Part shown: piece by piece, positions 9,499 to 27,864 of the stretch
Layout of the letters: each line of letters starts with the position of its first letter
Numbering within the stretch: the first letter of the stretch is position 1
DNA from: Chthonomonadaceae bacterium
GTDB lineage: Bacteria > Armatimonadota > Chthonomonadetes > Chthonomonadales > Chthonomonadaceae
Length of the DNA: 39,203 nt
Direction of reading: 5' to 3'
NCBI GenBank assembly: GCA_035650735.1
Contig: DASRGZ010000131.1
Span: forward strand, 1 to 39,203
Translations under genes and position numbers: made by a program
The notes under the pieces: generated by a model
What the model saw: only the letters and a program-made list of their open reading frames with translations
Told to the model about the DNA's origin: nothing
Databases searched by the model: none

Positions 9499-9942
9499 AT
9501 GTTCATGAGGCTTCAGATGCGCCGTGCCTTTACCTTAATCGAGCTGCTTGTCGTCATTGTCGTCATTGCCGTGCTTGCGGCCATTGTGATCCCGAAGTTC
9601 ACCGACCAGGGCAGGCGCAGCAAGGACGCCGCTTTGAAAAGCAATCTTGCACTGCTGCGGAACGCCATCTCCGCCTACCAGACGGATACGGGCCTCTACC
9701 CGCTTACCCTGGCGGACCTGGCAGCAACCGCCGCGCCCGCTAACGGCGCAGACCCGACCTCAGGAGCGTCCACGGCCATTCCGTCCGGCTCCTGGCATGG
9801 CCCCTATATCCAGGGCTCTATCCCCAACGATCCGGTTTCCGGCAGTGCTTTTACCTACTCGGTCACCGCTGGCACCGTGGGCAAAGTGAGCAGCAGCGCT
9901 ACCGGCAACGATAGCAATGGCACAGCGTACAGCAGCTATTGA
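9499..9942 (+). CDS. Major pilin / GspG-like pseudopilin
   Basis: AAGGAGG SD before ATG 9499 (start revised from 9370). Class III signal RRA|FTLIELLVVIVVIAVLAAI, plus GspG-like AYQTDTGLYP and WHGPYI..P.DP motifs. Confidence 0.9.
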   Translation: MFMRLQMRRAFTLIELLVVIVVIAVLAAIVIPKFTDQGRRSKDAALKSNLALLRNAISAYQTDTGLYPLTLADLAATAAPANGADPTSGASTAIPSGSWHGPYIQGSIPNDPVSGSAFTYSVTAGTVGKVSSSATGNDSNGTAYSSY

Positions 9943-9992
9943 TCTTAGAGGCCAGAGGAGACAGCCCGCATCGGCCCTGCCGGCCCGTTTTG

Positions 9993-10212
9993 TTTCCGGG
10001 CGGCTAAAGCCGCAGCAACCAGGGCACAGAGTCCGCCTGCGCGGACTCCTTTCTCCCCTCTCCCGCAGCGTGGGAGAGGGAGTGGGGGTGAGGGCTTTGT
10101 TCGACCACCTGCTGTGGACTCAACAGCCCGCTTTTGGCCTGTTCCAGCACGCGCTCCAGTCCGCGCAGCCGTTCTAACCCGCAGCGTGGGAGAGGGGGTG
10201 GGGGTGAGGGCT
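9993..10212. repeat. REP-like palindrome cluster (insert-free copy of the 1-131 family plus two GGGAGAGGG..GGGGTGAGGGC units)
   Basis: GCGGCTAAAGCCGC and GTCCGCCTGCGCGGAC hairpins; direct repeats CCCGCAGCGTGGGAGAGGG.GTGGGGGTGAGGGCTTTG near 10062-10098 and 10178-10215. Confidence 0.75.
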
Positions 10213-10626
10213 TTGAATTCATTCGCCCGCCATCGAATCCGGTCTGGATTAACGCTGGTGGAGGTGCTTGTGGCCGTCACGGTTCTCTCGGTGGCGTTGC
10301 TGGCCTACGTGTCGGCCTCTCTGGCATCGCGTGCCGCCGTGGATAAGGGGGACTATTTTACTCTGGCCGCGCAGGCTGCCGGAGACAAAATCGCCGACTT
10401 GCAGGGAACGGGTTACGCCGGGCTTGTGGACGGAACGACCACTTACGCCGTGGCCGGGCTTCCTCAGGGACAGATGACCGTCGTTATCGGGCCGCTCGAC
10501 GGCGATCCCGCCAACACCAATATCAAGCAGATAGACGTGACCGTCGTCTGGAACGCCGCCAGCAGCCGCACTCCGCAGACGGCCGGAAGCGTCCGGCTCT
10601 CCGGCCTGATCAGCAACCGCCCATGA
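10213..10626 (+). CDS. Minor pilin (PilV/GspI-like)
   Basis: RIRSG|LTLVEVLVAVTVL prepilin motif with Glu5 and KQIDVTVVW C-terminal strand. Likely start TTG 10213, since the upstream part of the listed ORF is repeat DNA. Confidence 0.8.
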   Translation: MNSFARHRIRSGLTLVEVLVAVTVLSVALLAYVSASLASRAAVDKGDYFTLAAQAAGDKIADLQGTGYAGLVDGTTTYAVAGLPQGQMTVVIGPLDGDPANTNIKQIDVTVVWNAASSRTPQTAGSVRLSGLISNRP

Positions 10627-11225
10627 GCCGCAGACGCGGGCTGACGCTGGTGGAAGTCCTGATGGCGCTGACGCTCGGCGCCGTCGTCCTCGTGCCGGTG
10701 CTCCTGATCTTTGCCACCCTGAGCGGACAGTGGGCGCGGCAGATCAGCCGGTCGAAAGCCATCCAGGAGGCCAACCTGGCCGTGGATGGAATGGCCAAGG
10801 AGATCCGTGAAGCGATCTCCTTCCTGCCCTATGACGCCGCCACCAATACCGCCAACGTCTTCACCCTCCCGGCGAACCGGGATGCGTCCGGCAACTATGT
10901 GCCGGCCTGGCAGAACGGGACTTTGCAGTACCAGCCCGGCACGCAAGTGAGCTTTTATCTGGCCAATGCCAGGGGAAATGCGGGCGGCCCCAACCTCTGG
11001 CGTCAGTATAAGCTGCCCGGTGGAAACTGGACGGCAGATGCGGCATGGAGCCTGCTGCCCGGCTCCTCCGTTCCCAGGATAGGGGATGTCCAATCGCTGT
11101 CCTTTGACGCGACGGGCACGCCGCCCAACGTCGTCCGCCTTACGCTGACGGTGGCGGTGACAGAGGGCATCCGAACCTGGACCTATACGGTGCGGCGTGA
11201 TGTCTATATGGCCCATCACAATTAG
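10623..11225 (+). CDS. Minor pilin (PilW/GspJ-like)
   Basis: MSRRRG|LTLVEVLMAL prepilin motif, MAKEIREA helix, ATGA overlap. Confidence 0.85.
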   Translation: MSRRRGLTLVEVLMALTLGAVVLVPVLLIFATLSGQWARQISRSKAIQEANLAVDGMAKEIREAISFLPYDAATNTANVFTLPANRDASGNYVPAWQNGTLQYQPGTQVSFYLANARGNAGGPNLWRQYKLPGGNWTADAAWSLLPGSSVPRIGDVQSLSFDATGTPPNVVRLTLTVAVTEGIRTWTYTVRRDVYMAHHN

Positions 11226-12291
11226 AGGCGCGGGTCGAGGTCGAAATCGGGGAAGTGTTGCGCTGTCGGCGATTGCCGCCCTGGCTATTTTGCTGGTCGT
11301 CGTTCTCGGCATGATGGCTATCGGCAATGCGACGTTTCTGAGCGGCAAGCGGCAATTGCGCCTGCGCGGCGCGCGCGCTATGGCCGAGGCCGGCATCGAG
11401 TACGGCTACTGGCAGTACGCCTATAACAAGGCGACCTTGCCCTATACCGGCAGCCGCAGCCTGGGCAGCGGCAGCTTCCGCGTAACCGTCACGGACAATA
11501 GCGCCAGCATCCCTTCCACGATTCAGATCGTCAGCACAGGCACGCTCAACGGGGAGACCGCTGCCCGCACGGAAGTTCTGCCGTCGAGCAGCACCCGGAC
11601 TCCGTTCGACTATGCTCTCTGTAGCAACACCTCTATCAGCGGCCCCGATATGGTCACGGGCGCGGGAGGCACGAACGGGGACATTCGCGCTAACGGCGAC
11701 ATTTCGCTGACGAGCTCCACGATAACCTCCACCGTGAACGGGGATGCCTATGCAGGAGGCACCTTGAGCATTCCTGTCGTCACCGGGGCGAAATTTCCCG
11801 GGGCGGCGTCGCTGTCCTACCCCGCTATTGACCTGGCCTATTACCAATCTATCGCCAACCGGAGGTTTAACTCCAGCCAGACATTCAGCGGTTTCCTCTT
11901 TCTCAGGCCCAACGAGGTGGTCTATGTCAACGGCGATATTACCTTGAATTCCGGCTACATCGTTGGCACGGGGACCCTGGTTGCCGCCAACCAGATCGTG
12001 CTGAACGGCGACCTCGCCTATGCGTTCTCCACCGATAAATTTGCCGGGCTAGCGGCAAACGGCATTACCGTCAGCGCCGCCCAGATCAGCGTTGTGGGCT
12101 TCTACTATGCGCATAACAGCAGCAACACCGCCAACGCCAGCCTCAAGGGTAAATTCCAGTTGGCACAGGGCGCTCTGGCCGCGGATACCGTTACGGTAAG
12201 CGCAAAACCGAAAGACAAGCCCTATAGTCTGGTCCATGATCCCGCTATGAGCTCCGCCCTTGGAAGGCAGCTTCACCTGCCCGGCTACTGA
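11197..12291 (+). CDS. PilX/GspK-like minor pilin or tip protein
   Basis: RNRG|SVALSAIAAL without Glu5, ARAMAEAGIEYG PilX-N motif, and beta-solenoid-like repeats (IRANGDI, YVNGDIT). Confidence 0.8.
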   Translation: MMSIWPITIRGAGRGRNRGSVALSAIAALAILLVVVLGMMAIGNATFLSGKRQLRLRGARAMAEAGIEYGYWQYAYNKATLPYTGSRSLGSGSFRVTVTDNSASIPSTIQIVSTGTLNGETAARTEVLPSSSTRTPFDYALCSNTSISGPDMVTGAGGTNGDIRANGDISLTSSTITSTVNGDAYAGGTLSIPVVTGAKFPGAASLSYPAIDLAYYQSIANRRFNSSQTFSGFLFLRPNEVVYVNGDITLNSGYIVGTGTLVAANQIVLNGDLAYAFSTDKFAGLAANGITVSAAQISVVGFYYAHNSSNTANASLKGKFQLAQGALAADTVTVSAKPKDKPYSLVHDPAMSSALGRQLHLPGY

Positions 12292-12375: not shown

Positions 12376-13629
12376 ATGGCCCTGATCTTAATCTTCATTA
12401 TAGCCAGCCTGGCCGTTTTGCTGCTTCTGTTGAAGCGGCGCGAGGCGGCGCTGCAGCGCCGGGCGCGCAAGCTTTCGACCCTGCTGGAGTTTGGGGCTTG
12501 CTTCGCGAGCGGCCAGGATGCGGCCCAGATCATGGAGCAGACGCTGCGGGCTGCTATTCGGGATACCGGCGCGACGGCAGGTTATATTATGCTTGTCAAC
12601 GAGAGGGGCAACGCGCTGCTGACCGAGATGGCCGTCAGCATGGGGAAGGAGCATTCTTTCCCCAGGGACAGAGCCTGGGGCGAAGGCATGGAAGGTTATG
12701 TGGCAGAAACAGGCAAGCCTCTAGTTTTAGCGCGCGAACAGGAACCACGCGGGCAGAAATCCGTTGCGGCGCGCTCCGATCTCCACTACGAGGGAGAGGC
12801 CGCTTTGTGCCTTCCCATGCTGGAAAGCGGTTCCACCCTGCTCCATGGTGGGGTCATCGGCGTCTTCACTCTGCTCCACCACCGACCGGGCCACCGCTTT
12901 CTCGATGAAGATGTGGATCTGGCGCGCATGCTGGCCGGGCTGGCCACCATGGCCTTCGTCAATTCGCGGCTCTATGAAGACCAGCAGGCCGCCTTTCTGC
13001 GCTCTCTGCAAGCCCTGGCAAAGACCCTCGATGCCAAAGATCCGTATACGCAAGGCCACTCCTACCGCGTCTCCGAGCTTTGCGTGATGCTCGGTAAAAA
13101 GCTGGGGGTCGCGCCGGAGGTCCTGCACGATCTGCGCAACGGCGCGCTCTTGCACGACATCGGCAAGATCGGCATTCCAGATTTGATTTTACGCAAGCCT
13201 GGCCCGCTAAACGCCGCCGAGTTTGAAATTATGAAGCAGCACCCGGTCATCGGCTATGAGATCTGCAAGCCGCTGGGCCTGGGCGATGAGATCCTGAGGC
13301 TCATTCGCAATCACCATGAGAAATTGGATGGGACCGGCTACCCGGACGGGCTGAAACTCGGCGAGCTTCCTCTACCGCTGCGCATCATCTGCGTTGCCGA
13401 TGCCTTTGACGCCATGAGCTCGTCCCGGCCCTATCGGAAGGTGCTGGATAGCCAGCTTCGCAACGCGCAGCTTAATCGCTTTGCAGGCACGCAGTTCGAT
13501 CCCGTTGTTGTGGAGACGCTTAAGGGGATGGTGAATTCTGGCGAACTGGATGAGCTCTACAAAGAGCATTGGAGGCTGCAGCAGGAAGAGGATGCTGAGG
13601 GGGACATCTCTCTGTTTGAAGCCGCCTGA
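12376..13629 (+). CDS. Membrane-anchored GAF + HD-GYP phosphodiesterase
   Basis: N-terminal TM, GAF region, DPYTQGHS, LLHDIGKIGIP, HHEKLDGTGYP, VADAFDAM, RPYR and GTQFDP. Confidence 0.92.
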   Translation: MALILIFIIASLAVLLLLLKRREAALQRRARKLSTLLEFGACFASGQDAAQIMEQTLRAAIRDTGATAGYIMLVNERGNALLTEMAVSMGKEHSFPRDRAWGEGMEGYVAETGKPLVLAREQEPRGQKSVAARSDLHYEGEAALCLPMLESGSTLLHGGVIGVFTLLHHRPGHRFLDEDVDLARMLAGLATMAFVNSRLYEDQQAAFLRSLQALAKTLDAKDPYTQGHSYRVSELCVMLGKKLGVAPEVLHDLRNGALLHDIGKIGIPDLILRKPGPLNAAEFEIMKQHPVIGYEICKPLGLGDEILRLIRNHHEKLDGTGYPDGLKLGELPLPLRIICVADAFDAMSSSRPYRKVLDSQLRNAQLNRFAGTQFDPVVVETLKGMVNSGELDELYKEHWRLQQEEDAEGDISLFEAA

Positions 13630-13889
13630 TGGCTCACCTAGACTGTCCTGTTTTATTCCCGCAGGCTCCTCCCAGTCCGCAGATATGGGCAGCGGCCTCG
13701 GCCGGTTTTGACAGGAGCCTGAGAGCGTCTAACACAACCGTTCTCCCTCTGCCTTGCAGGGAGAGGGCGGGGTGAGGGTGAAGCCTTACAGCCAGGTTTT
13801 GTTACGGACTATAAGTAGATTTCCGGTCTCCGCCATAATAACAAGATGAGACGCCAAACGGCTGGATCCTTCAAGGAGAAATACCCGGT

Positions 13890-16505
13890 ATGCGGTGGTT
13901 TGGAAACCTGAGAATCATTTATAAGCTGGCTCTCGCCTGCCTGGCCTGCCTGGCCCTGCCCATGCTCACGAGCGTCATCGCTATCGGGTGTCTGTCTCAG
14001 CTTATCCAGGAGACGCAAGCTCTGCAAGGCGCTCTCCCCGGCCATCCTGACGCTAAGGAGAAAAACCTGGGCCTTTCCGGTCTACTGCCTCAACACGAGC
14101 AGACCGCCTCGGCCCACCCCCCGCGGGAAGTGCCCGACAGGAAGCCCAACAGGGCAGAGGCAGCGCCAGGGCTGGCCTCTCCTCAGCAAACTTACGCTTT
14201 CTACGAGTGGAGGATCCATTATCTCAAATTCACTCAGGCCCTCCTTATCGTTCTCTTGGTGGCTACTCTGCTGATTAGCCTGCTGGTAATCCGCTATCTG
14301 GCGCGCAGCCTGAGCCAGCCGCTCCTGGCCTTCACGAACCGCATGGCTACCTTACGTGACCGGTGCCTGACCAGTTTAGGCCAGGCCGCTACCGCTATGG
14401 CAGCCGGGGATCTCACGGCGGTAATCCAGGTGGAAACGAAGCCTCTCTACGGCCAGACGCGCGATGAGTTTGGCACCATGGCCCGGGTTTTTAACGGGAT
14501 GCTGACCCAGACACAGCAGGCGATGACGGCCTTCATGCAGGCCCAAGCTGCCTTACGGGAGCTGCTTGGACACGTAGCGCAGGCGGCCCATTCTGTCGCA
14601 GACACCAGCACCCAGCTCGCCGCTGCCGCGGCCCAATCCACCCAGGCCAGCGCGAAAATCGCCGCTTCGATCCAGGAGGTCGCTCACGAGGCGCAGCAGT
14701 CCGCGGAGACGAGTCAACAGATGGCCCAGGAGAGCGAGCAGCAGTGGCGCAGCGCCACCAACGCCAGCGAGGCCATGCAGCATCTTAAACAGGCCATGAG
14801 GCAGGTGCAAAGCAGCGTAGCGGACCAACAGGCAGCCTCCCAGCAAGCGGAGACGGGAATGCAGCAGGCCAGGCAATCCGTCGAGGAGGTCGCCTCCTCC
14901 GCCTGGCAGATGGCCTCTACGGCGCAACAGGCGCTTGCCATTGCCCAGGACGGAGGCAAGGCCATCGAGCAAACCATCGCCAGCATGAGCCGGATCAAAG
15001 AGCAGGTCCAGGTCTCGGCCCACAAGATGCATGAGCTGGGCCAGAAAGGAAAGCAGATCGGGGCCATCGCCGAAACCATTGACCAGATTGCCGAGCAGAC
15101 CAACCTGCTTGCGCTCAACGCGGCCATTGAAGCGGCCCGCGCCGGAGGGCATGGCAGAGGCTTCGCCGTGGTCGCCGAAGAGATTCGCAAGCTGGCGGAG
15201 CGCGCTCAGGCAGCCACGAAGGAGATTAGCGGCTCCATTAACCACATCCGCGCGGGCATGGAGGCAGCGCTCCAGGCGATGCAGGCCAGCACCCAGGAGG
15301 TAAGCCAGGGGGCAGCCCACGGGGAGGAGGCGGGCCGCGGCCTGGCTCAGATGCTGCAAGCCACCCAATCCGTAGCCATGGAAGTAGAGATAATGACAGA
15401 GGCTGCCCATAAGATGAGCGCCATGGTGCACTCCGTGCAAGCCTCCGTAGCCACCATGCGCCAGATTGCCGACAGCAACGAGCAAGCGGTCGCCGAGATA
15501 GCCATAGGAACGGAACAGGTCGGAACGGCGATCCGGGAGGTGGCCTCGATCAGTGAGCAGAATTTCGCCGGGGCCCAGACGATGCGCGCCTCGGCAGAGG
15601 AAGTTTCTGACCATAGCCAGACGGCCAGTGGGGTCATGGAGGAACAGACGGCCAGCATTCAGCAGGTCAGCAGCGCCGCGAACCAGCTCAGCCAGATGGC
15701 CGCGGGCTTACAGGGCCTGGTAGACCAATTTAAATTGACGGCGGAGCCGTCCCTGGCGCCTATGGCAAGGGGAGAACTCTGCGTGCTGCCCGACCCCGGC
15801 CCCTGGAAGCAGGCGGCGGAGTCGCCTGCGGCGCCCACTCCAGCGCCGGCCCTGTCCGAGCGCGCTGTGCCGCCTGGGCTCGCTCCGTGCCTGCCCGACC
15901 CACTTTCCCCTCCGGATTATCTGCGCTACCTGGAAGAGAGCTTGATTCAGCTCGGTCTGGAAAACGTCGATCTATTCCAACTCGCAACAACCGATGCCCT
16001 GACGGGCCTGAAGAACCGGCGGGCTTTTGAGGACTATTTCAACCAGGCCTTTTTTGAGGCCCTCCGCTATCAGCAACCCTTCTCGGTGCTGTTAGTGGAT
16101 GTGGACCATTTCAAGGACTATAACGATACCTTCGGCCACCAGGAGGGCGATCAAGTGCTTAGAGAGGTGGGCTCCCTGCTGCAAACCAACGTGCGCAAGG
16201 CCGACTTTACCGCCCGGTATGGCGGCGAGGAGTTTGTCGTATTGCTGCCGATGACGGATAGCCAGCAGAGCCTGCTCGCTGCCGAGCGGCTGCGGGCTGC
16301 GATTGCCGAGCATGCCTGGTCTCGCGATGGGGTGACGGTCAGTATTGGCGTCGCCTCCTTAGTCCCTTCGATCCAGGAGGCCGCGACTCTGATTGCCCAG
16401 GCCGATAAAGCGCTTTATGCCGCCAAGGCGCAGGGGCGCAACACGATTATTCACTATGCCAATCTCGAAGCACCTCTAGCATGCCAACGGGTCGTTGGGT
16501 GCTAG
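13890..16505 (+). CDS. Methyl-accepting chemotaxis protein fused to a C-terminal GGDEF diguanylate cyclase domain
   Basis: Two TM helices, [42 protein letters not shown], a Pro-rich linker, then [32 protein letters not shown]-x5-GGEEF and ADKALY.AK..GRN. Confidence 0.92.
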
Positions 16506-16515
16506 AGTGAACATA

Positions 16516-16690
16516 GCCCTCACCCCCGGCCCACTGCTAGGGGCGGGCCTGCAATGGACTGCCAGGGTCGGCAGGGTTAGGGCCCCTGCCTCCGCCTTGC
16601 CACAGCCCTCCGCCTCGCGACCCCCGACGCTGCGGGAGAGGGGGGAGGCATTCTCCTGCGAGAGAGTGCCCCGAAGGGGCATGGGGCTAG
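16516..16690. repeat. Composite REP-like element with nested ACTGCCAGGGTCGGCAGGG family
   Basis: GCCCTCACCCC left end and CGCTGCGGGAGAGGG right part; 16567-16615 is identical to the reverse complement of 39073-39121. Confidence 0.8.
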
Positions 16691-16715
16691 AGTGGAATAG
16701 AACCGAAGAACGCAT

Positions 16716-18035
16716 ATGGAGCCTACTTATCCACCCAAATCCGATCTGAGCGCCAGGATAGCCGCCCTGGAGGCCGAACAGGCTCGCCTGCAAGCCCGCT
16801 GTCAGCAATTGCAGCAGGACCATAAGCGCCTGCAAAGCCGCTATCAGAACCTGTCCGCTCAAATGTCTGCGACCCAGGCGCAACTCCAGCAGGCGGAAGA
16901 GAGCTTGAGGCAGCAGTTCGAGCAGTTTAGCGCCCTGCGGGCCATGGATGCCCTGGTCACCGCCAATCTGGGCTTGATGCCTCTGTTGCGGTTCTTTGTC
17001 GAGCAGGTGGCATTCCTGCTGCACGTAGATGCGGCGGCGGTGCTGCTCTGCGATCCCCAGGCCCGGACCCTGACCTTTGCCGTAGGCCATGGCTTTCGAA
17101 CGCAGGGCATTACCCATTCCTGCGTCTCCCTGGGAGAGGGACGGGCGGGCCAGGCTGCCCAGGAACATTGTCTGGACTTTGTTCCCGATTTGCGCGCGGC
17201 AAGCACGACGTTCACCCGCGCCGGCTTGATCGCAGGGGAGGATTTTGTTGCCTATTTTGTGATCCCTCTGCTGGCTAAGAACCAGGTCAAGGGGGTACTG
17301 GAGATCTTTCACCGTGGGGAACTAGAGCCCAGCCGGGAGTGGCTGGAAACATTAGAGATGCTGGCAGGCCACATGGCGATTGCGATGGATAATGCCATGC
17401 TCTTCCAGGAGCTCCAGCAGGCCAACGCCGAGCTTGTAGGCGCCTATGATGCGACCATTGAGGGTTGGGCGCGGGCCTTAGAATTGCGGGATAAGGAGAC
17501 GGAGGGGCACAGCCGACGGGTCACCGAGATGACCATGCGCCTGGCGCGCAAGCTGGGCATGAGCGCCGCCGAGCTGACCCATGTGCGCCGTGGAGCCATC
17601 TTGCACGATATCGGCAAGATGGGCATTCCCGACGCCATCCTGCTCAAGCCAGGCCCCTTGACCGAGGAAGAGAGAAAAGTGATGTGCCAGCATCCGGTCT
17701 ATGCTCACGAATGGCTCTGGCCGATCCAGTTCCTGCGCCCGGCCTTAGCGATTCCTTACAGCCATCATGAGAAGTGGGATGGCACCGGATATCCTCAAGG
17801 CTTACAGGGCCCGCAGATCCCCCTGGAGGCACGGATCTTTGCAATAGTGGATGTGTGGGATGCTCTCAACTCGGATCGGCCTTACCGGCCACGATGGGAC
17901 CAGGATCGCATCTACAGACATATCCAATCGCTGGCAGGCACCCATTTTGACCCTGAGTTGGTGGAGGTGTTTCTGAGTGTGATGGCTGAGGGGGAGAGCC
18001 CAGAACAGGCTAACGAGCTGCGTGAGGCGGCCTGA
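16716..18035 (+). CDS. Coiled-coil + GAF + HD-GYP phosphodiesterase
   Basis: Gln-rich coiled coil, GAF, AYDATIEGWARALELRDKETEGHSRRV, LHDIGKMGIP, HHEKWDGTGYP, RPYR and GTHFDP. Confidence 0.93.
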   Translation: MEPTYPPKSDLSARIAALEAEQARLQARCQQLQQDHKRLQSRYQNLSAQMSATQAQLQQAEESLRQQFEQFSALRAMDALVTANLGLMPLLRFFVEQVAFLLHVDAAAVLLCDPQARTLTFAVGHGFRTQGITHSCVSLGEGRAGQAAQEHCLDFVPDLRAASTTFTRAGLIAGEDFVAYFVIPLLAKNQVKGVLEIFHRGELEPSREWLETLEMLAGHMAIAMDNAMLFQELQQANAELVGAYDATIEGWARALELRDKETEGHSRRVTEMTMRLARKLGMSAAELTHVRRGAILHDIGKMGIPDAILLKPGPLTEEERKVMCQHPVYAHEWLWPIQFLRPALAIPYSHHEKWDGTGYPQGLQGPQIPLEARIFAIVDVWDALNSDRPYRPRWDQDRIYRHIQSLAGTHFDPELVEVFLSVMAEGESPEQANELREAA

Positions 18036-18281
18036 ACGCTTTCCGACCGCTGCCCCGGCAGGAAAGCGTCTCCGTTTTTCTATAAAAGGACGCCTCCGCT
18101 ATCTGAAAGGCCCATTTTACAGACATTGGAAGCGTTGCCAGGGTTTCCTCTCGACGAGGCTCTGACAGCGACCGGGAAGCATTTCGTCTCCCGTCGGGAT
18201 TGCTGGTAGACACTCCCAGCCGTGTGGATCAATCTCACGCAGCCTGCTGCTGAGGAGATACGTCCACACCGTTGGGAGGGA

Positions 18282-19487
18282 TTACCGGATTTCTGTTAGG
18301 CAGTTTTTTTTCGGTTTTCTGCTGGCTATTACCAACCGAAGCGGTCGCAGAAGGCAGTAGAGGCCATTCAGATACGAAGGAAGCGCGCAGAGGGCACGGT
18401 CGCGGGCGTTTACTCTAAACGCCCGCTGCAAACAAAAGCGCACGTACGGAATGCGATCCTGAAGGCGCTCCCGTACGCGCAGATGGAAGGCCGTTCTTTC
18501 CATCAGTTCCCAAATACCGGGAGACGCAGAGCCCTCCTGAAACAGATGCGCGCGCACCTGCCCAGCCAGCAAGTCTACGGCAGGCTCTGTCCCGGGCCAA
18601 AGTCCGTCCGGCGCAGGTAAAGCTATCCCCAACACATCCTTGACCAGTCGCAGGCCCAGGAGCAGTATGCGCGTACTGCCTAACCGAGCCGCCTGCCGGC
18701 CAACCCATTCCCAGTTCATAGCCGGCTGAGCCCGCAACAGTTCCGCTACATCGCAGATCCACGCTAACCGTTCCCAGCAGTGTCTGGCTCCATGCATACA
18801 TAAGTACAACAGGAGGTCTTCGGGCGCAAAGTGGTGTACGCTGCTCTCGACAAAGGAAAGGCACTCTAAGCGGTTCCACAAACCTTCGCCCGCAAGCGGA
18901 AAGGGAAAATACCATTTGCTGAGGTCCCAGTGCAGCTCCACGCAGGCCCTGCCCTCCGGGCCCATAAAGGCATAGGCGCCGTCCTCATGAAGCTTTTCCT
19001 GGTAGCCCTGATTGAGAAGTAAGGACCTAGCCACCAGGGCCGATTGCCTGGGCACTAAGATATCCAAATCGCCGCCCTGCCGCAAGGCTACGTTGCCGTA
19101 GATCTGAGCCGCGAGAAGTGGCCCCTTGAACGGAACCGCAGGAACGCCGTGCGCTTCGAACAGAGCTAGGAGCCGAAGCAGTTCTTGGGCGAGGCAACGG
19201 CTACGGCGTGCATTGGCTTCAAAATGATCGCGCAGATCCTCAAGGGTGGCTTGCGGCACCGCCTCCGGGCAGACAGCGTTTAAATTCTGATAGAGCAACG
19301 GCAAGATGCCATGCCGGATCGCCCCTAAGATGACATCGAGCCAATTCAACTTGCACTGTAATAATGCCCGGATGCGCTCGGCGGTTTCCGCGTCCACCTG
19401 GGTTCGGGCACAACATACAAGCAGGGCGGCTTCCGGACGCAGACAGGCGCCTGGAGCTACGAAGGAGTACGGGAGGCGGCTGTTCAT
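18282..19487 (-). CDS. Nucleotidyltransferase, NTP_transf_5 type (as in paeninodin/pseudomycoidin-type clusters)
   Basis: FKGPLLA..YG...LR.GGDLDILV catalytic motif, VELHW, LCMHGARH.W.RL.WICD. Confidence 0.85.
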   Translation of the reverse strand: MNSRLPYSFVAPGACLRPEAALLVCCARTQVDAETAERIRALLQCKLNWLDVILGAIRHGILPLLYQNLNAVCPEAVPQATLEDLRDHFEANARRSRCLAQELLRLLALFEAHGVPAVPFKGPLLAAQIYGNVALRQGGDLDILVPRQSALVARSLLLNQGYQEKLHEDGAYAFMGPEGRACVELHWDLSKWYFPFPLAGEGLWNRLECLSFVESSVHHFAPEDLLLYLCMHGARHCWERLAWICDVAELLRAQPAMNWEWVGRQAARLGSTRILLLGLRLVKDVLGIALPAPDGLWPGTEPAVDLLAGQVRAHLFQEGSASPGIWELMERTAFHLRVRERLQDRIPYVRFCLQRAFRVNARDRALCALPSYLNGLYCLLRPLRLVIASRKPKKNCLTEIR

Positions 19488-19528
19488 TTCGGTCAGCCCT
19501 TGTCTTCTTAAGCGGCCCAGGTGTCTGT

Positions 19529-20512
19529 TCAGGCGACAAGATCCGCTAACAGCCTGGGAGTAGTATCGAAATCACGGCCTGTCTCTAGCCGGTAGCAGGG
19601 TGTCGTGCGAACAAGCTCTGCCAATATGTCCAGGTGGGACTGGCAGGAACAGCGCTCGGTCAGCAGAATGTTGGGGGCGAGTTCCAAAAGCGCTTCACCC
19701 GGGCTCATCCGTTTGAGAAGGCTTGCTTGCTTGGCGGAGATCTGAGGGAAAACAACGACCGCCGGCCGACACTCGCGGACAAATTTAACATCGTAGACTT
19801 CTTCGACCAGGAGGGGATGCTTTGGCCACCCGACGGGACGGCGGCATCGCCTCTGAGAGGTAAGCTCTGGGAAGAAGCCTGCCGTTTCCTCCGTGATGTC
19901 AACCTCATCCGGGAAGGCGAGCATACGAATGCCCCCTGAATCCTGGCTTAGAAAAATCTGATCATCTCCGAGAAAATCAAAACCGGCGCGCAATAAAGCC
20001 AGAGTTAAGGTGGATTTCCCTGCTCCACTGGTGCCGGGCAGGAGGATGCCCTTATTCTGGAGGCATAAGCCCGCCGCATGCAGGCTGTAGCGCTGATGCC
20101 GCTTGCAGAGTTCGAGGAGCGGTAACGTGAACAGCGGGTGGGAGACGAGCCATACCTCCTGTTCCCGGTACGGGCGAAAGGCGATGTGGGTTCGGCCTTT
20201 CTCAGGATCACAGACACACCGCACGTTATCTCCGTAGCGGATATAAAGCTGGTCTGCCGTAGCGCTATAGACGACTTCTCCCATCTTCAAGTCGTAAACG
20301 GGGCGTAACGGTCCCGGTGGCTTTGTAATAGGAAGGTCGCTTTCCTGGGAGACTCGCTCTAGAACAAAGCACAGCTCGGCAAGAGGTTCCCTCAGGATCC
20401 TAAAATGCCGCAATCTCCTCTGCAAAGCGGCCAATACGGAGGCATCATTACTGCGGATTTGGAAAGCCAGGCCATGGAAAGCATAATGGTGAGTGCTGTA
20501 GGGAATACTCAT
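19529..20512 (-). CDS. HPr-kinase-like peptide kinase (lasso-peptide kinase family)
   Basis: LHAAGL catalytic His, Walker A GTSGAGKST, LGDD motif; ATGA overlap with the B2 gene. Confidence 0.85.
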   Translation of the reverse strand: MSIPYSTHHYAFHGLAFQIRSNDASVLAALQRRLRHFRILREPLAELCFVLERVSQESDLPITKPPGPLRPVYDLKMGEVVYSATADQLYIRYGDNVRCVCDPEKGRTHIAFRPYREQEVWLVSHPLFTLPLLELCKRHQRYSLHAAGLCLQNKGILLPGTSGAGKSTLTLALLRAGFDFLGDDQIFLSQDSGGIRMLAFPDEVDITEETAGFFPELTSQRRCRRPVGWPKHPLLVEEVYDVKFVRECRPAVVVFPQISAKQASLLKRMSPGEALLELAPNILLTERCSCQSHLDILAELVRTTPCYRLETGRDFDTTPRLLADLVA

Positions 20513-21018
20513 CCGCTGGGTGCCTGTTCCGATGGTGTGGTTTCTATGCTATTCACAATGGTTGTCCTGTGTGGCAGACGATAGACCTCGGCGAAAAGCA
20601 GGCGGGGATCCTTTCGCTCCAGATAAGGCTCCCCCGCAAGGATCAGCCAGCAATGGCCAACAAACTCATCTTTCACCTTGCCCATTCCGAAACAGAGAGT
20701 GACATCCAGCCCGGCTCTGTGGAGGAAATAGTACAGGGTCACGCCGCGCGTCAGACAGCCCGGACGAATGAGGGGCGTACCGATCCGGAGCGCCATGTCC
20801 ACATAGCGAACAATTCGCTGGATTCGATCCCGTCTCGGAGCAGCGCGGGGAGGCTTTGCCTCCAGCAGGACGGCCAGTTTAGACAGCTTCAGCCGCAGAA
20901 GCATCGGGACTAGGGCTGCGAAGCAGAAGATAGAAACGAAGAGGAGGAGGTTGTGTAGCCTATTCCGTTGCCGCAGGATCGCAAAGACGCTAGGGTTCCA
21001 GGACCACCAGGTTCTCAT
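20509..21018 (-). CDS. Lasso-type B2 leader peptidase (transglutaminase-like Cys protease)
   Basis: GCLTRG (catalytic Cys), LCFGM and GHCW (catalytic His); overlaps the RRE gene. Confidence 0.88.
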   Translation of the reverse strand: MRTWWSWNPSVFAILRQRNRLHNLLLFVSIFCFAALVPMLLRLKLSKLAVLLEAKPPRAAPRRDRIQRIVRYVDMALRIGTPLIRPGCLTRGVTLYYFLHRAGLDVTLCFGMGKVKDEFVGHCWLILAGEPYLERKDPRLLFAEVYRLPHRTTIVNSIETTPSEQAPSG

Positions 21019-21268
21019 GGGCCAGGTCCTCCAACAACTCGATCACATCGGCCTGGATAGTGGCGGCGGGCGCCTCGTACTCCTGGCAGAGAAGGGATAT
21101 GATCTCCGAGACAGGGCAAGTGCCATCGCAGCACTCCCAGATACGGCCGCCTACCTCGTCGAGAGCATAATACTGCCCGTTCTCCAGGTTGAAGAGCACA
21201 AAGTCCTCTGCGGCCCGCTGCTTGAGAATATCCTCTCGGCGGCGTGGGTGACTGGTGAGAGCGATCAT
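20990..21268 (-). CDS. PqqD-family RiPP recognition element (lasso B1)
   Basis: VLFNLENGQYYALDEVGGRIWE..DG...SEII..L..EYE......ADV..LL.DL...NLV; GAGGAG SD. Confidence 0.92.
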   Translation of the reverse strand: MIALTSHPRRREDILKQRAAEDFVLFNLENGQYYALDEVGGRIWECCDGTCPVSEIISLLCQEYEAPAATIQADVIELLEDLAHENLVVLEP

Positions 21269-21315
21269 CTATGCATGGGCTCCTCTTGATGATTTCCGAA
21301 TTGTCCCCTTGTATA

Positions 21316-21361
21316 GCAGCAGAGAACTTTCCAGGTGAGAAATCTGGTAGTTCCCTGCTGC
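21316..21361 (-). terminator. Stem-loop between precursor and RRE genes (mRNA stabiliser or attenuator)
   Basis: On the minus strand GCAGCAGGGAACT pairs with AGTTCTCTGCTGC (13 bp, one G-U), with an inner CCAG/CTGG stem. Confidence 0.65.
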
Positions 21362-21390
21362 CGTTTCTGATCTAGTTGTGCCAGTCCACC

Positions 21391-21477
21391 CTATTGAGGG
21401 ACTGAAAACCGAGTGAGCTGGCGAAGCAGTCCCAACCGTTTCAAGCGCGGCTTCACATAGGCTTTCTTGACAGGCAT
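21391..21477 (-). CDS. RiPP precursor peptide, 28 aa, MPVKKAYVKPRLKRLGLLRQLTRFSVPQ (lasso-type leader + 5-aa core); absent from the ORF track
   Basis: Hand translation. AAAGGAG SD 9 nt upstream; exact YxxPxLxxxGxxxxxT leader motif; lies directly upstream of the RRE and B2 genes. Confidence 0.88.
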   Translation of the reverse strand: MPVKKAYVKPRLKRLGLLRQLTRFSVPQ

Positions 21478-21704
21478 AGAATTGTTCTCCTTTCTGGCGA
21501 TTGAGATGATTGGCGGTCGATGATATCCGTGTGATCAACCGGTTGCTGCTTCAGAACACAGAGGAATTGCTGGGTAAGGAATGGGGAAGGCCCCGGAGTA
21601 GATCAAAACGCCTGAAATGAACATGCCAACAACGGTTAAGATGCTGGCAATCGGTTGGCAACAGCTAGCTTGAGGATCATGACGATCCGACAATTGTGCT
21701 GGCT

Positions 21705-21721
21705 TGCAGAAAGCGTGCCAA
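21705..21721 (-). promoter_or_regulatory. Candidate sigma54 (-24/-12) promoter for the RiPP cassette
   Basis: Minus strand reads TTGGCACGCTTTCTGCA versus TGGCACG-N4-TTGCA; GG-N10-GC spacing is exact. Confidence 0.65.
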
Positions 21722-21760
21722 CTATTCAAGAGCGAAACAATTTTTAATGTTTTTCAGGGT

Positions 21761-21930
21761 GTTGCCTATTTCGTACTGCCTCTGCTGGCTAAGAACAAGA
21801 TCAAGGGCATCCTGGGGATCTTTCACCGTGGGGAACGGGAGCCCAGCAGGGAATGGCTGGAGAGGAGCCAGAACAGGCTAACGATCTGCGTGAGGCGGCC
21901 TGAAGGCTTTCCGACCGCTGCTCCGGTAGG
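21761..21930 (+). pseudogene. Degenerate, internally deleted duplicate of the 16716-18035 HD-GYP gene 3' part
   Basis: 21761-21862 resembles 17247-17348 (VAYFV.PLLAKN..KG.L.IFHRGE.EPSREWLE). 21863-21930 resembles 17994-18062 (gene end and 3' flank). Confidence 0.85.
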
Positions 21931-21983: not shown

Positions 21984-22847
21984 TTACGGAGACGGTTGCT
22001 CGACACGAGGCCGAGCATAACGAAAATCGGCACGGGGACCAGAGAGTTCCAGGCCGGGCAGCGTGCGTTCGGCCAAATCAAACGTTTCTTCTACCAGGCA
22101 TCGGACGCTCTCGGCGGCTTCGACAGGCGGGACACGAAAGAGACGTTGTATCCGTCCTGGCGTGTCAGGGGGCTGTAGCAGGAAGCTCTGCAAGGTATGG
22201 CTCATCCATTTCAGCTCCGGATAGTACTCCCGGTTGATACCGCACAGGGCGCCGAAGATACCCCGCACGGACTCGGTGAGCGCACAGGCGAACAGGAGCA
22301 GATCGTCGCGCTCTATGTAGGCGGACATATAATCCCAGGGCGGCAGGTCTAGCCAACGACGCACCATAGCATAGGCCAGGGCCTCTGGATACAAGCCGGT
22401 CTTTTCTCGCCAAGCGCTGAGCAAAGCCTGGCCGTAGAGAGGAAGGCCATGCCGAGCCACGTAGACGAGCCCTTGTCTTGCTTCGTCGGCGTCGGCATTG
22501 TCTACCACACTCGCCAATACACGTTCCATGCCCGCGACCGTCATGTGGCGCATATCTACCTTCAGGCTGGAGACCGCGTATTCTTCGAACTACACGTCCT
22601 CCGTCTCTGGATCAAAGGGATCAAGTACCCAGTCTTGTCCGCCCGCCTGTAGCATGAGAGTCGCATGGACAGAAGGTGACGGCAAGGCGCGCCAGAAGAC
22701 GCCGATTTCCACGTCCGAGAAGCGATCCGCGCATCCTCGCGCTACGGAGCCTCCCACGAGGATAGCTTCGACATCCGGGTGTTGCGCGTACCACGCCGCC
22801 ATGTTTTGCGCCTGGGCCAGGCGCCACGCGCTTTGTTCGTTGTGCAT
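21984..22847 (-). pseudogene. Pol-beta-type nucleotidyltransferase-domain protein interrupted by one in-frame TAG at 22590-22592
   Basis: GGSVARGCADRFSDVEIGVFW motif. The two ORF pieces share a frame and read ...PETEDV*FEEYAVSSLKVDMRH...; SD precedes ATG 22847. Confidence 0.8.
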
Positions 22848-22921
22848 ACCTTCTTTCTCGCCTGCGAAAGCCAATTTGCTAAGCTAATCTAGCGGAGCCT
22901 GGTATGCCGGCCAGTTCCTGG

Positions 22922-24043
22922 TTATTCTCTGTTCCGCACCACGCGGATGAAGTGGTCGGCCATCGCGACGCTAATCTGGGAGGCTGCCATCAATCGGCGC
23001 GAAGGCATGTGGCAGCCGATACAGTGTTCCTTCGGGCTCACGGGACATGGTTTGATCGCCACCGATTGTAACGGCGCGGGACGGTGGGAGGAGGGCGTTC
23101 CGGAGTGGCAATTCAGACAGACGGCTTCGTAGGCTTTCTGGTTGGTGCTGACGTTGGTGTGCGGGTCGTGGCAGGTAATACAGGAAAGCGTCTCTTTGCT
23201 CTGCTTGAAGCACCGGCTCTGCGCCAATCCATAGGCTTGAAAGCGATGGGTTGCGTCTTTTTGCAAGTTTTTCTTCCGGACGTCCTGCTCCGTCAGGTGG
23301 CATCGGCCACATAGCGTGTTGATGCGGGAGGCAGGCCAGGTTTCCAGCTTTGCCATTTGCCCCTGGTCATACTTGCCCGCGCTCATGGCCGCGATATGGG
23401 CGCTGCCTGGACCATGGCAGGCTTCGCATCCGACCCCGAAAAAGCGCTCTTCCGGCTCCAGGCTATCGGCGGGAATCGTGACAGCATGGCAAAGAACACA
23501 TTGCCGCGCGAAAGCTCCCGTGCGTACCATGCCCATCGAGTTGGCAGGCAGTTTTTCGTGCCCCGGCGTGATATACCACCTCTTTTGATGCGGAAAGTAG
23601 CTCATCCGCATTTCCGCTATCGCCGCGCTGCCCAGAGGCGTCACGTAGGTCATCCCGGTCTTTCCGGAGCCGAGCGCGTATTCCAGCGGTGGGAGATTGC
23701 CGGACTGGGAGGCGACGCCTATCCCGAAGCGGCCATTCTTCTCCTTCATGGTCAGCGGGGAATGGGGAATTGGCCCGGACGGCGGTGCTAAATCCCCCAG
23801 GCTCTGGCGCGACATGCGGTGAAACGTCAGCGCATGGTGGCTGCGGTGCTGGCTGTTATACTCGTTCTGGTGGCATGGCGCGCAGGCGTCACTACCGACA
23901 AAATCCGGGGGGCGCACGATCTGCTGTACCCTCGCCTGCGCAGCAGACGGCACTCTCTGGCTGCATCCAGCCGCCAGAGCCAATCCGACGGAGGCGGCCA
24001 GCAGTCCGCTTACCATAAAACGTAGGCCCAAGAGATTCCCCAT
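22922..24043 (-). CDS. Multiheme c-type cytochrome lipoprotein (7 CxxCH)
   Basis: Lipobox LAAGC; CAPCH, CVLCH, CEACH, CGRCH, CITCH, CLNCH and CIGCH; GVGCEACHGPGSAH c554-like motif. Start uncertain (24043 or 24079). Confidence 0.88.
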   Translation of the reverse strand: MGNLLGLRFMVSGLLAASVGLALAAGCSQRVPSAAQARVQQIVRPPDFVGSDACAPCHQNEYNSQHRSHHALTFHRMSRQSLGDLAPPSGPIPHSPLTMKEKNGRFGIGVASQSGNLPPLEYALGSGKTGMTYVTPLGSAAIAEMRMSYFPHQKRWYITPGHEKLPANSMGMVRTGAFARQCVLCHAVTIPADSLEPEERFFGVGCEACHGPGSAHIAAMSAGKYDQGQMAKLETWPASRINTLCGRCHLTEQDVRKKNLQKDATHRFQAYGLAQSRCFKQSKETLSCITCHDPHTNVSTNQKAYEAVCLNCHSGTPSSHRPAPLQSVAIKPCPVSPKEHCIGCHMPSRRLMAASQISVAMADHFIRVVRNRE

Positions 24044-24440
24044 GTGTGCCCTCGTTGGGTTCTGAAGCAGGATACGCAATAAGCTGCCGGACTATTCTTC
24101 CTAGCCATAGGGCGAGCCCTCCTTCAGGGTCTGCCTTCTTAATTCCGGCTCACGCCTCCTCTCTCCTCCCAAACTGCCGCATCTCTTCCTTGACTCAGAA
24201 AATGGGCCGTCCTCTCAGAGAGAGGCAGGCCCATATCGAAACGGCGCAAAATCGTCATGTAACGTTTACCGGCATGTTGTCCTGTTGTAACCTGGAGCGG
24301 TTATCCTTAAGCAACAACGGCTCGCATAAAGGCAGCCCTTTATCCGAGTTTATTGCACAAGCCTTGCCCTACCGGGCAAGAGCGCTCCGGTCTGTTTTGG
24401 GCGGCTGCGCCGCCCCTGCATCCATGAAGGAGAGAAAGCA

Positions 24441-25734: not shown

Positions 25735-26856
25735 TCAGGACTTTGTTCGGTAGATGCGGATGAAGTGGTCTGGCATGGTCGTGGAGACCTTTGTATCGGC
25801 GAATACCTTTCGCCGGGGCATGTGGCAGCCAATACATCCGCTGTGCGCGTTTACCGGGCAGGTTTTGCCCTGGACAGTTCTCGTAGCGCTTGCCGTCCTT
25901 GCCGATTGTGCGGGGGAATGACATCCCAGGCACGCCGCCTCATAGGTCCTCCGGTCGGTGCTAGCGTTGGTGTGGGGGTTGTGGCAAGTCAGGCAGGAGA
26001 GCGTATCGTGGCTGTTTTGGAAACAGGCGCTTTTCATGAGGCCGTAGGCTTGAAAGCGGTGCGTGCTGCTAACGGAGGTAACGGTGGGCGTGGTAACGTC
26101 CTGGGCGGTACGGTGGCAGCGTCCGCAGAGCTCATTGATGCGCGTGGCCGACCAGGAACCGATCTGTTCCGTGTAGAGATGGGCGCGGTCTCCGGCACGC
26201 ATGGCGGCAACGTGGGCGCTTCCGGGGCCGTGGCAGGACTCACAGCCGACGCCGAAAAACTGCTTTTCCGGCATCAGGGAGTTGTCGGGCAGCGCGGTCG
26301 CATGGCAGAGAAGGCATCGGCGCGCAGTGGCGCCGCGATAGGTCACCCCGATCCCATAGTCTGGGGCATTCTCCTGCCCCGGCGTGACATACCACTTGCG
26401 CTCATGGGGAAAATAACTTGTGTGAACTTCCGCCAGCGTATCGTCGCTGACGATGGCTACGTAGGTCATCCCGGTCTTGCCGGAGCCAAAGGCCAGATCT
26501 AACGGTGACAGGCTCTCCGGCTGCCCGGTGATCTCGACCCCAAACCCTTCCCCCAAACGTTTGATAGTGACCCAGGTATTTGCGACAGAGCCAACCGGCG
26601 GAGCCAGCGATCCCAAGCTGGGGCGATTCATGGCGCGTAGGGTCAGGGCATGGCGGCTTGCGCGGTGGCTATTGAACTCCGCCTGGTGGCACTCTCCACA
26701 GACGGCATTGCCCACGTAGCTCACTGTGGCAGGCGCGACCACTACCTGCGGCCTGGCGGCAGGCACGCGTTGCGCGCACCCTGCCGCTAAAAGCAGCGCT
26801 GCCGTCGCCAGCGCACAAGTTCCGAGGAGACAGCGTATCGCAAAGCGCTCGGGCAT
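25735..26856 (-). CDS. Multiheme c-type cytochrome lipoprotein (7 CxxCH), paralog of 22922-24043
   Basis: Start revised to ATG 26856 (MPERFAIR...LAAGC lipobox); CGECH, CLLCH, CESCH, CGRCH, CLTCH, CLGCH and CIGCH. Confidence 0.88.
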   Translation of the reverse strand: MPERFAIRCLLGTCALATAALLLAAGCAQRVPAARPQVVVAPATVSYVGNAVCGECHQAEFNSHRASRHALTLRAMNRPSLGSLAPPVGSVANTWVTIKRLGEGFGVEITGQPESLSPLDLAFGSGKTGMTYVAIVSDDTLAEVHTSYFPHERKWYVTPGQENAPDYGIGVTYRGATARRCLLCHATALPDNSLMPEKQFFGVGCESCHGPGSAHVAAMRAGDRAHLYTEQIGSWSATRINELCGRCHRTAQDVTTPTVTSVSSTHRFQAYGLMKSACFQNSHDTLSCLTCHNPHTNASTDRRTYEAACLGCHSPAQSARTASATRTVQGKTCPVNAHSGCIGCHMPRRKVFADTKVSTTMPDHFIRIYRTKS

Positions 26857-27027
26857 TCGAGAAGTTCCCTTCCTGCTTCCAGGACTGTTGTCGGCACGTT
26901 TCTGTATCCAGAAGCGAAACTCCTTCCTGGAGCGGGGAACGCACCCACTCGCAGGAGAGGCTGGAGTTGGCGGCGAAGATAGCGGCGAACATCGCCTTTG
27001 CCCTGACATGTGGAAGGAGACGAGCGT

Positions 27028-27864
27028 ATGCGACTTGGCGGCCCTCTCTTTGCTGATGCCTCCGATCCGGAGCGCTGGATTGCGGCGCTGCGCCAACGCG
27101 GCTACAGCGCGGCCTATTGCCCGATAGATAACACGGCTACCGACGAGGTGATCCGCGCCTATGCGGAGGCGGCGCGCAAGGCAGATATCGTGCTGGCCGA
27201 AGTGGGCGCCTGGAGCAACCCCCTCAGCGCCGATGAGGCATCCCGACGCGCAGCTCTGGCCCACTGCCAGGCGCAACTGGCCCTGGCCGACCGGATCGGG
27301 GCGCGCTGCTGCGTCAATATCGCCGGTTCGCGCGGGGCGCAGTGGGATGGCCCGCATCCCGACAATCTCACAGAGGCCACCTTTGATCTCATTGTGGAGA
27401 GCGTGCGCGCCATTATTGACGCCGTAAAGCCGACGCGTGCCTACTACACGCTGGAGACGATGCCCTGGATGTATCCCGACTCGCCGGAGAGCTACCTGCG
27501 CCTGATCCGAGCGGTGGATCGCAGGCAGTTCGCCGTGCATCTCGACCCGGTTAATCTGATTTGCAGCCCGCAGCTTTTCTATGCCAATGGCGACCTGCTC
27601 CGCGAGTGCTTTGCCAAGCTCGGTCCTTATATCCAGTGCTGCCACGCCAAAGACATCACGCTTTCAGGAAAGCTGACGGTGCATCTGGACGAGACGCGTC
27701 CGGGCCTGGGCGCGCTGGACTACGGCGTGTTCCTGCAAGAACTGGATAAGCTCGATCCGGACACGCCTCTACTGCTGGAACATCTTTCGACAGAGGAGGA
27801 CTATACTCAGGCGGCGGAGTATGTCCGGTCGGTGGCGCAACAGGTGGGAGTGATGATCCGATGA
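27028..27864 (+). CDS. Sugar phosphate isomerase/epimerase (xylose-isomerase-like TIM barrel)
   Basis: AAGGAG SD; metal ligands in LETMP, HLDPVN, CHAKD and LLEH. Confidence 0.85.
   Translation: MRLGGPLFADASDPERWIAALRQRGYSAAYCPIDNTATDEVIRAYAEAARKADIVLAEVGAWSNPLSADEASRRAALAHCQAQLALADRIGARCCVNIAGSRGAQWDGPHPDNLTEATFDLIVESVRAIIDAVKPTRAYYTLETMPWMYPDSPESYLRLIRAVDRRQFAVHLDPVNLICSPQLFYANGDLLRECFAKLGPYIQCCHAKDITLSGKLTVHLDETRPGLGALDYGVFLQELDKLDPDTPLLLEHLSTEEDYTQAAEYVRSVAQQVGVMIR

Follow-up and report, generated by a model that had tools for sequence, protein, structure and literature searches.

What can a lasso-type leader-processing pair produce when it is encoded beside a peptide kinase and a nucleotidyltransferase and with no ring-forming cyclase? 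The question is raised by a minus-strand operon at 18282-21477 of contig DASRGZ010000131.1 of a Chthonomonadaceae bacterium (Armatimonadota); the entire contig (C131 of genome G000, 6.5 Mb, 97.6% complete) was analysed, and its 39,203 nucleotides are referred to below as the window. The operon encodes, in order, a precursor peptide, a recognition element (RRE) for peptides synthesized on ribosomes and modified post-translationally (RiPPs), a B2 leader protease, an HprK-like kinase and an NTP_transf_5 protein, and the last four genes overlap or nearly touch. On balance the favored reading is that the five genes form a functional operon whose product is a linear RiPP of very small size, F-pS-VPQ (pS, phosphoserine), capped via its phosphate. 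The basis of this reading is gene content, conservation, intact catalytic residues and the lack of a cyclase; the reactions and the product are predictions.

Precursor gene, leader and core

The operon and its signals are as follows, all on the minus strand:
21705..21720, candidate promoter site of the sigma-54-like kind, 243 nt ahead of the precursor start
21487..21492, Shine-Dalgarno AAGGAG, 9 nt ahead of the precursor ATG, from sequence
21391..21477, precursor peptide gene, 28 aa, by homology to nine precursors; the peptide is that of the initial annotation
21409..21477, leader, residues 1-23, with Y-17, P-14, L-12, G-8 and T-2 in the computed register
21394..21408, predicted core FSVPQ, with Ser25 the proposed phospho-acceptor and the cut site placed by the T-2 register
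21315..21362, RNA hairpin between the precursor and RRE genes, z -3.15, with 2/200 shuffles equally good
20990..21268, discrete RRE (lasso B1/PqqD family), PF05402, E 5e-22
20509..21018, B2 leader protease, Cys88 and His122, PF13471 E 6e-16, NF033537 above cut-off
19529..20512, HprK-like peptide kinase, His145, Lys166, Asp183 and Asp184, PF07475 E 2e-6
18282..19487, NTP_transf_5 nucleotidyltransferase-fold enzyme, Asp140 and Asp142, PF14907 E 3e-65

The initial annotation had proposed the 28-aa precursor from an unannotated open reading frame (ORF) with a strong ribosome-binding site, and homology now bears this out: a hidden Markov model of nine homologous leaders, built without the window sequence, matches the ORF at E 9e-10 when it is scored against the rest of its own genome (183,987 six-frame segments). 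There is no second match among these segments, the best other one scoring E 2.6. Precursors of the family are 23-28 aa long with the leader consensus YxKPxLxxLGLLRxxT, and the feature by which lasso-type leaders bind the RRE (YxxPxL plus Thr at -2) is present in the window precursor. Such a hairpin is present in four of the five loci that were folded out of ten with a precursor; outside the window, z at the matching position is -7.6 in L010, -5.0 in L144 and -3.9 in L047, and L051 has a weak one (-1.9). The sigma-54-like site, scored with the consensus, is the sole window match at no more than one mismatch, yet 42 of 100 whole-window shuffles yield one, so that the match is not significant over the window as a whole; such sites occur at a genome rate of 0.0025 per 400 nt and in 3/10 precursor loci. 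A sigma-54 gene is encoded in the window's genome, and a sigma-54 activator gene immediately follows the kinase in L010 and L144.

Enzymes of the operon

The RRE, B2, kinase and nucleotidyltransferase named by the initial annotation are each matched by family profiles. The closest solved relatives of the RRE are TbiB1 (5v1u, E 4e-10) and 9x90 (E 1e-8); HPr kinase structures match the window kinase weakly, and no solved relative was found by sequence for B2 or the nucleotidyltransferase. The B2 Cys and His are invariant in 9/9 aligned proteins (the true B2 start may be internal), the kinase His-Lys-Asp-Asp residues in 42/42 and the nucleotidyltransferase DxD in 11/11. A structural model of the last enzyme (predicted local distance difference test score, pLDDT, 80) resembles ANT(2'')-Ia, LnuA and MenT1 (E 1e-4 to 7e-4) and FKRP (E 4e-3). 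ANT(2'')-Ia, LnuA and FKRP form phosphodiesters on sugar hydroxyls. The operon enzymes are thus intact in their catalytic residues, and their activity is predicted on that ground. Asn_synthase, ATP-binding cassette (ABC) exporter and signal peptidase are absent from the 35 window ORFs that were scanned, picked from 135 of at least 80 aa, in agreement with the earlier observation that cyclase and exporter are missing here.

Assemblies of two runs flagged as possible sources of the assembly (X1 and X2) each span 18260/18262-21900 in one contig with no difference to the window. The run of another study (X4) agrees with the cassette save for one changed letter and two holes; the hole at 21402-21415 covers the Thr-Arg-Phe-Ser codons, and the leader and the Pro-Gln-stop end match. 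No RNA data set was listed among those containing the sequence, which bears neither way on expression.

Related loci and the family core

Kinase relatives number 771 among 8000 proteins scored, the best 120 at 44-56% identity and with source names that include Entotheonella, Thermoanaerobaculia and Gemmatimonadota; at E 1e-30 or better the kinase family comprises 810 clusters. The same gene order is met again in relatives whose kinases are about 35-51% identical, under the lineage names Pseudomonadota and Thermoanaerobaculia as well as in the phylum to which the window belongs. A set of 20 loci, made up of 15 of 77 metagenome loci (E 2e-30 or better) together with L010, L144, L179, L132 and L174, was used for comparison. 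Of the 11 loci with an RRE and at least 400 nt upstream, 8 have a precursor immediately ahead of it, and L179 is a further precursor locus; none was found upstream of the RRE in L057, L059 and L132 (at least 400 nt upstream in each), and the L132 precursor sits on another contig (L179) of the same genome. That genome, G125, carries a split system, with the secreted protein, FSF precursor, B2 and transferase at L179 (C146) and the RRE and kinase at L132 (C411). The nucleotidyltransferase gene follows the kinase in nine loci and lies upstream in L144. Fusions of B2 to the kinase (P0122, P0236) and, in more distant systems, of the RRE to the kinase (L064, L175) indicate that the parts belong to one pathway.

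Behind the conserved Thr-x, the homologous precursors end in FSF (L047, L048, L051, L052, L144, L179), LSF (L054, L060) or GPVPS (L010). The initial annotation expected short cores of the type [F]-S in relatives, and [FL]-S-F-stop indeed ends 8/9 of them. On the evidence of these precursors the predicted family core is the tripeptide [FL]-S-F, extended to FSVPQ in this one case; the 6/2/1/1 split comes from ten loci. Hence of the core proposed at the outset, its shortness and lack of acidic residues hold for the family, and its particular sequence holds for the window copy only, one homologue (GPVPS) even lacking the Ser at position 2. All ten cores are 3-5 residues long and none contains Asp or Glu; the Asp/Glu at position 7-9 and threading tail needed for a lasso are not there. 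Homologous clusters were likewise expected to be free of a cyclase, and an asparagine-synthetase match is found in 0/20 loci (for G125, G335 and G342 the search did not extend to the full genome), with 3/3 lasso-type control loci positive; many of the 20 are short contigs, and the absence is firm only for L010, L051, L054 and L144, with several kb on both sides.

In a quick kinase tree with support from the Shimodaira-Hasegawa-like approximate likelihood ratio test (SH-aLRT) alone, and with L060 omitted as too short, the window kinase groups with FSF/LSF loci at a support of 93, and its branch is of ordinary length (0.57; median 0.5). The L010 kinase pairs with the FSF locus L144 (SH-aLRT 98), so that the two five-residue tails probably arose separately; a shared "xxVPx" subfamily of window and L010 is unsupported on this ground. 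The window's kinase and PqqD protein fall outside the HPr-rel-A system, whose cut-offs (TIGR04352, TIGR04353) they do not reach (58 vs 200 bits for the kinase, 18 vs 35 bits for PqqD); a true HPr-rel-A member in G335 scores 386. Among 401 genomes of the phylum of G335 (5 candidates scored per genome), only G335 itself is positive. No relatives were found on viral contigs, and plasmids yield 5 distant kinases (26-31% identity). Six YxKPxF-G pattern matches in G125 are a DNA repeat and not peptides.

Several other arrangements were seen in passing. P0257 (739 aa) is a same-family kinase fused to a radical SAM domain. L131 (G088:C2) has an RRE, a candidate precursor whose core is a repeat of Ser/Glu/Gly, a kinase, an ABC exporter and a transferase, and adjoins a second RRE, B2 and ATP-grasp maturase. 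L041-L046 (G044, G003, G004, G002, G043, G053), of the same class as the window, have B2 genes; L041-L045 carry an RRE and cyclase-like genes, and in L045 and L046 the cores of candidate precursors are longer and include Asp.

Proposed pathway

In the favored scheme the YxxPxL leader would be bound by the RRE, as homology suggests, and the HprK-like kinase would place one to several phosphates on Ser25 of the intact precursor by analogy to BsfK, LppK and PsmK. An RRE-assisted B2 cut after Arg23, positioned by the T-2 register, would then yield F-pS-V-P-Q, or F-pS-F in most relatives, and no ring would be closed. Finally NTP_transf_5 would convert the phosphate to a phosphodiester, most likely with a sugar as in pseudomycoidin. 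In an optional form of this last step, which is the weakest of the scheme, a peptidyl-Ser-triphosphate might stand in for an NTP in the way that FzmU uses a phosphonate diphosphate; the idea arises because these kinases attach as many as three or four phosphates and because FzmU employs a triphosphate-like donor. The linear, capped F-pS-VPQ is favored because of the BsfA-like leader register, the intact catalytic residues, the transferase resemblance and the hexose precedent of PsmN.

Points against the scheme and the standing of the window copy

A number of observations weigh against this scheme. The kinase PF07475 score is under the cut-off and matches to HprK_rel_A/B are weak; there is no exporter in the window; the nucleotidyltransferase was not found next to the kinase in L010 (within 6 kb), L049 and L057; and LppN reportedly showed no activity in B. 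subtilis (PMC13381572). In addition L010 lacks Ser2 in its core, L057 has RRE, B2 and kinase with no precursor upstream, and FSVPQ is unique among the ten precursors, although Phe-Ser-hydrophobic is kept. The core Ser codon is TCA in the window vs AGY in 8/8 tripeptide loci. Since TCA is also rare (2.9% of genome Ser codons, 1/43 in the cassette), the tail may not derive codon by codon from FSF. TTCAGT is present in a shifted frame at the window core (noticed after the fact and given low weight), and the tail could be the outcome of a minor slippage.

These deviations would fit an alternative that is unlikely but deserves weight; i.e. the family makes a modified tripeptide and the window copy is a relaxed, drifting orphan with its tail mutated or slipped, its partner gone and its product poor or idle. 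The one-off tail, the changed Ser codon and the frame-shifted TTCAGT would all fit, as would the absence from the window's genome of a secreted-protein domain found at four FSF/LSF loci (see below), and the other deviant core, L010, is likewise in a broken-up locus. The cassette also looks acquired, judging from composition and distribution, because the G+C content of third codon positions is low (0.62-0.65 in B2, kinase and transferase and 0.76 in the RRE vs 0.80-0.83 in five host-like genes), because among the 68 genomes of the class no kinase match better than E 5e-25, i.e. of comparable score, is found in the other 67, and because a decayed gene copy adjoins it. Against the orphan explanation, none of the five frames is interrupted and the catalytic residues are intact, the kinase branch is not long, the Phe-Ser-hydrophobic pattern, Shine-Dalgarno, hairpin and promoter-like site remain, and the DNA of the second study contains the cassette with a single changed letter.

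Two features flank the cassette:
21760..21930, plus strand, internally deleted copy of an HD-GYP gene (original 16716-18035), with 86% identity to 17246-17347 and 89% to 17991-18062
18205..18290, strand not assigned, ~85-nt multicopy repeat touching the last codons/stop region of the nucleotidyltransferase gene, with ~130 blastn matches in the genome, many 95-100% identical

Upstream of the cassette, a Pol-beta-type nucleotidyltransferase ORF (22590-22874) and a DUF4037 ORF (21984-22553), both on the minus strand, look like one split gene. Elsewhere in the window are a type II secretion/type IV pilus-like cluster (969-12291, plus strand; PilM, PilN, secretin, ATPase, GspF, pilins), behind which come a pair of GAF-HD-GYP genes and an MCP-GGDEF fusion (12376-18035), and two multiheme cytochrome c genes with related domains (22922-24079 and 25735-27645, minus strand). 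The genome has three further NTP_transf_5 genes and one HprK-like kinase (C182:38686-41901, C201:15801-16622, C139:35691-36137); no RRE, B2 or precursor was found near them.

Secreted proteins with a shared C-terminal domain

Secreted proteins that adjoin the cassette have a 180-aa C-terminal domain in common; in L051, L144 and L179 they lie immediately upstream of the precursor, and in L054 immediately downstream of the operon:
L051:4468-5031, plus strand, 180-aa domain
L144:7837-8391, minus strand, 180-aa domain
L054:8458-9054, minus strand, 180-aa domain
L179:3642-4238, plus strand, 180-aa domain

The passengers that precede the domain are unlike one another (DUF3344, VWA, no family found, ice-binding). 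The domain is predicted as an immunoglobulin (Ig) plus jelly-roll fold (pLDDT 95.5); no NCBIfam or Pfam model was found on it and no specific structural match, the best fold having Z 7.3 and the Atlas look-alikes, Ig-like, scoring at most 0.79. It also occurs in L174, L175, L176, L178 and L182. The secreted proteins that bear it measure 450-4500 aa over all these loci and are often neighbors of RRE/kinase genes, and those of L174 and L175 adjoin PEP-CTERM genes; 117 homologues of 275-875 aa have source names of Thermoanaerobaculia.

In G335 the domain is ~15 kb from the cassette, and in the order of G335 (93 genomes) it is present in 3, both kinase holders included. In the third domain genome, G336, 4/5 domain copies have a more distant HprK-like kinase no further than 6 kb away. 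Two of the 301 genomes of the window's phylum have the domain; G125 also has the cassette, and G182 does not. Both profiles were run on 394 genomes, of which 4 contain the cassette, 5 the domain and 3 the two together (p 2e-4 without G342, which was removed since its domain was in the query; the statistic ignores kinship, and 7 and 11 candidates were scored per genome in the phylum searches). The domain was not found in the window's genome. The overlap of cassette and domain is unlikely by chance, and it suggests a cell-surface role for the family, to which the window copy is an exception. The intracellular signal raised as a possibility in the initial annotation is without support, the neighborhoods of relatives pointing to the cell surface instead.

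A more specific version of a surface role is improbable. Here the peptide would be a ribosomal tag or anchor and no free metabolite, grafted as a phosphopeptide through a phosphodiester onto a surface glycan or lipid-linked sugar, where the Ig plus jelly-roll proteins would dock. In its furthest form, equally improbable, a kinase-made Ser triphosphate on the 3-5-residue core would serve NTP_transf_5 in place of an NTP for the graft. The placement of domain-bearing proteins beside four cassettes and near that of G335, the co-occurrence across genomes and the kinases near the G336 copies speak for such a tag, and LPP and paeninodin clusters are reported to be often within capsule loci. The window's genome without the domain and G182 without the cassette speak against it, as do the kinship of the genomes, the few candidates scored in each, the lack of a specific fold match, and the lack of an exporter or glycan locus beside the window cassette. 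If the tag were real, its chemistry would explain the polyphosphorylation and phospho-hexose of paeninodin, pseudomycoidin and LPP, and the window copy would be a changed version with its docking partner lost or swapped.

At a separate G336 locus (L177:2235-2450, minus strand, C5), a candidate precursor with a nine-residue acidic tail accompanies a distant kinase and an RRE and is divergent from two C-terminal-domain proteins; G336 has ten kinase-profile matches.

A possible leader acting in trans

In a still less probable explanation the short peptide would chiefly serve as a leader in trans or be sacrificed as a substrate, with the kinase and nucleotidyltransferase modifying other proteins. 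It draws on L059, where RRE, kinase and nucleotidyltransferase without B2 come after a 217-aa ORF (3177-3830, plus strand) with a twin-arginine (Tat) signal (TIGR01409 above cut-off) and an internal YxxPxL that is followed by Ala-Ser-Thr and a run of Pro; this is possibly a protein-modifying variant cut by signal peptidase. L057, lacking a peptide, would also fit. However, five separate kinase-tree branches keep [FL]-S-F-stop, which argues that the core is under selection; in addition, the leader profile matches no other substrate in the genome, and B2 is kept.

Cyclase search

The initial annotation also called for a search of the rest of the genome for a lasso cyclase, and none was found in this 97.6%-complete genome. 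PF00733 matches in three places, two of them on contig C179, and four lasso-type cyclases from other loci used as queries match just these two C179 genes. Both open with the Cys-Gly-Ile glutaminase start, which lasso cyclases are not known to have; by reading of the ORFs they are surrounded by polysaccharide-type genes, and neither an RRE nor a B2 is on C179. The third, weak match is by its motif presumably argininosuccinate synthase. The window cassette contains the genome's sole strong B2 and its sole lasso-type RRE; a second PqqD match (C149) is not part of such a cassette, nor is a second Transglut_core3 match (C63, a 536-aa frame), the latter judged by size and score alone. A decayed lasso locus, or a lasso finished by a cyclase elsewhere, for which the lasso-type leader, RRE and B2 and the two C179 genes might be invoked, can therefore be set aside as exceedingly improbable, given that the C179 genes are AsnB-type in start and surroundings, that no lasso cyclase was found in the 20 loci, many of them short contigs, or in the genome, and that ten of ten cores are non-acidic and none exceeds five residues.

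Significance

The preferred reading, a linear capped phosphopeptide, bears on a wider question, the role of paired HprK-like kinases and NTP_transf_5 proteins in RiPP clusters: LppN reportedly showed no activity, BsfN is reported as uncharacterized and the reaction of PsmN as unresolved. A precursor of 24-28 aa with one Ser in a 3-5-residue core, and with no ring or exporter, is the simplest substrate with which to settle it, and all parts are accessible by synthesis or expression. Moreover lasso B1/B2 machinery would here serve a non-lasso product, so that mining based on B2 would miscall such loci, and the link to the 180-aa domain is the first testable lead on the purpose of the peptides.

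Comparison with known systems

A published B2-using, cyclase-free cluster with a 3-5-residue core was not found in the literature searched, which covers subscription journals thinly, and the supplements of PMC13381572 may list such loci. The initial annotation knew of no described RiPP class of this kind; this does not hold, since an analogous cyclase-free family with kinase and NTP transferase has been published as LPP (lppA-K-B-S-D-N, Bacillota; Popov et al. 2026, PMC13381572), its final product and role being unknown. LPP shares with the window the missing cyclase, discrete RRE, YxxP leader, HprK-like kinase, NTP transferase and a Ser near the leader end, and LppK phosphorylates Ser3 just behind the leader, which becomes polyphosphorylated (PMC13381572). 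It differs in using a SipW-like signal peptidase as leader peptidase, where the window operon has B2 (PF13471/NF033537), and in its MsbA-like exporter, of which there is none in the 35 window ORFs or beside the cassette in L051, L054 and L144. Its leader is YxxPxVLxHQxIxFETxxS, unlike the YxKPxLxxLGLLRxxT found here; its precursors are 35-200 aa (with a 45-aa core in the studied case) vs 23-28 aa with a 3-5-residue core, and it is restricted to Bacillota whereas the window family is in other phyla.

Bsf of Bradymonas sediminis (PMC10368454) has the same A, B1, B2, K and N genes and leader spacing (Y-17, P-14, L-12, -2); aided by the RRE, BsfK phosphorylates core Ser3, and the leader is taken off by B1/B2. 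Unlike the window, Bsf has a cyclase, an ABC transporter, a ~2 kDa core and Ile at -2 (PMC10368454). The pseudomycoidin and paeninodin systems (PMC6993621, PMC9266682) share a kinase that acts on the precursor and has the His-Lys-Asp-Asp motif of lasso kinases (PMC9266682), which the window kinase matches; PsmN, a DxD nucleotidyltransferase, is required for one or two hexoses on phospho-Ser (PMC6993621). They differ in having a ring, a long core that bears the Ser at its C-terminus, and an encoded exporter. In fosfazinomycin biosynthesis (FzmZ, FzmT, FzmU; preprint PMC13622209) a 22-aa YxxP precursor was similarly missed by annotation and gives only its last residues to the product, and FzmU is a nucleotidyltransferase using a kinase-made triphosphate-like donor; in contrast to the window that pathway has an asparagine-synthetase-like enzyme, phosphonate and hydrazine pathways, and no B2.

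The window locus is accordingly LPP-like in its predicted working, yet it lies outside LPP by its peptidase, the lack of an exporter, and its leader and core, and it lies outside the lasso peptides as well, even with lasso-type B1 (RRE) and B2 (Cys protease) both present in the operon. It is a real and intact member of a widespread family, a variant of the linear phospho-RiPPs rather than a new category.

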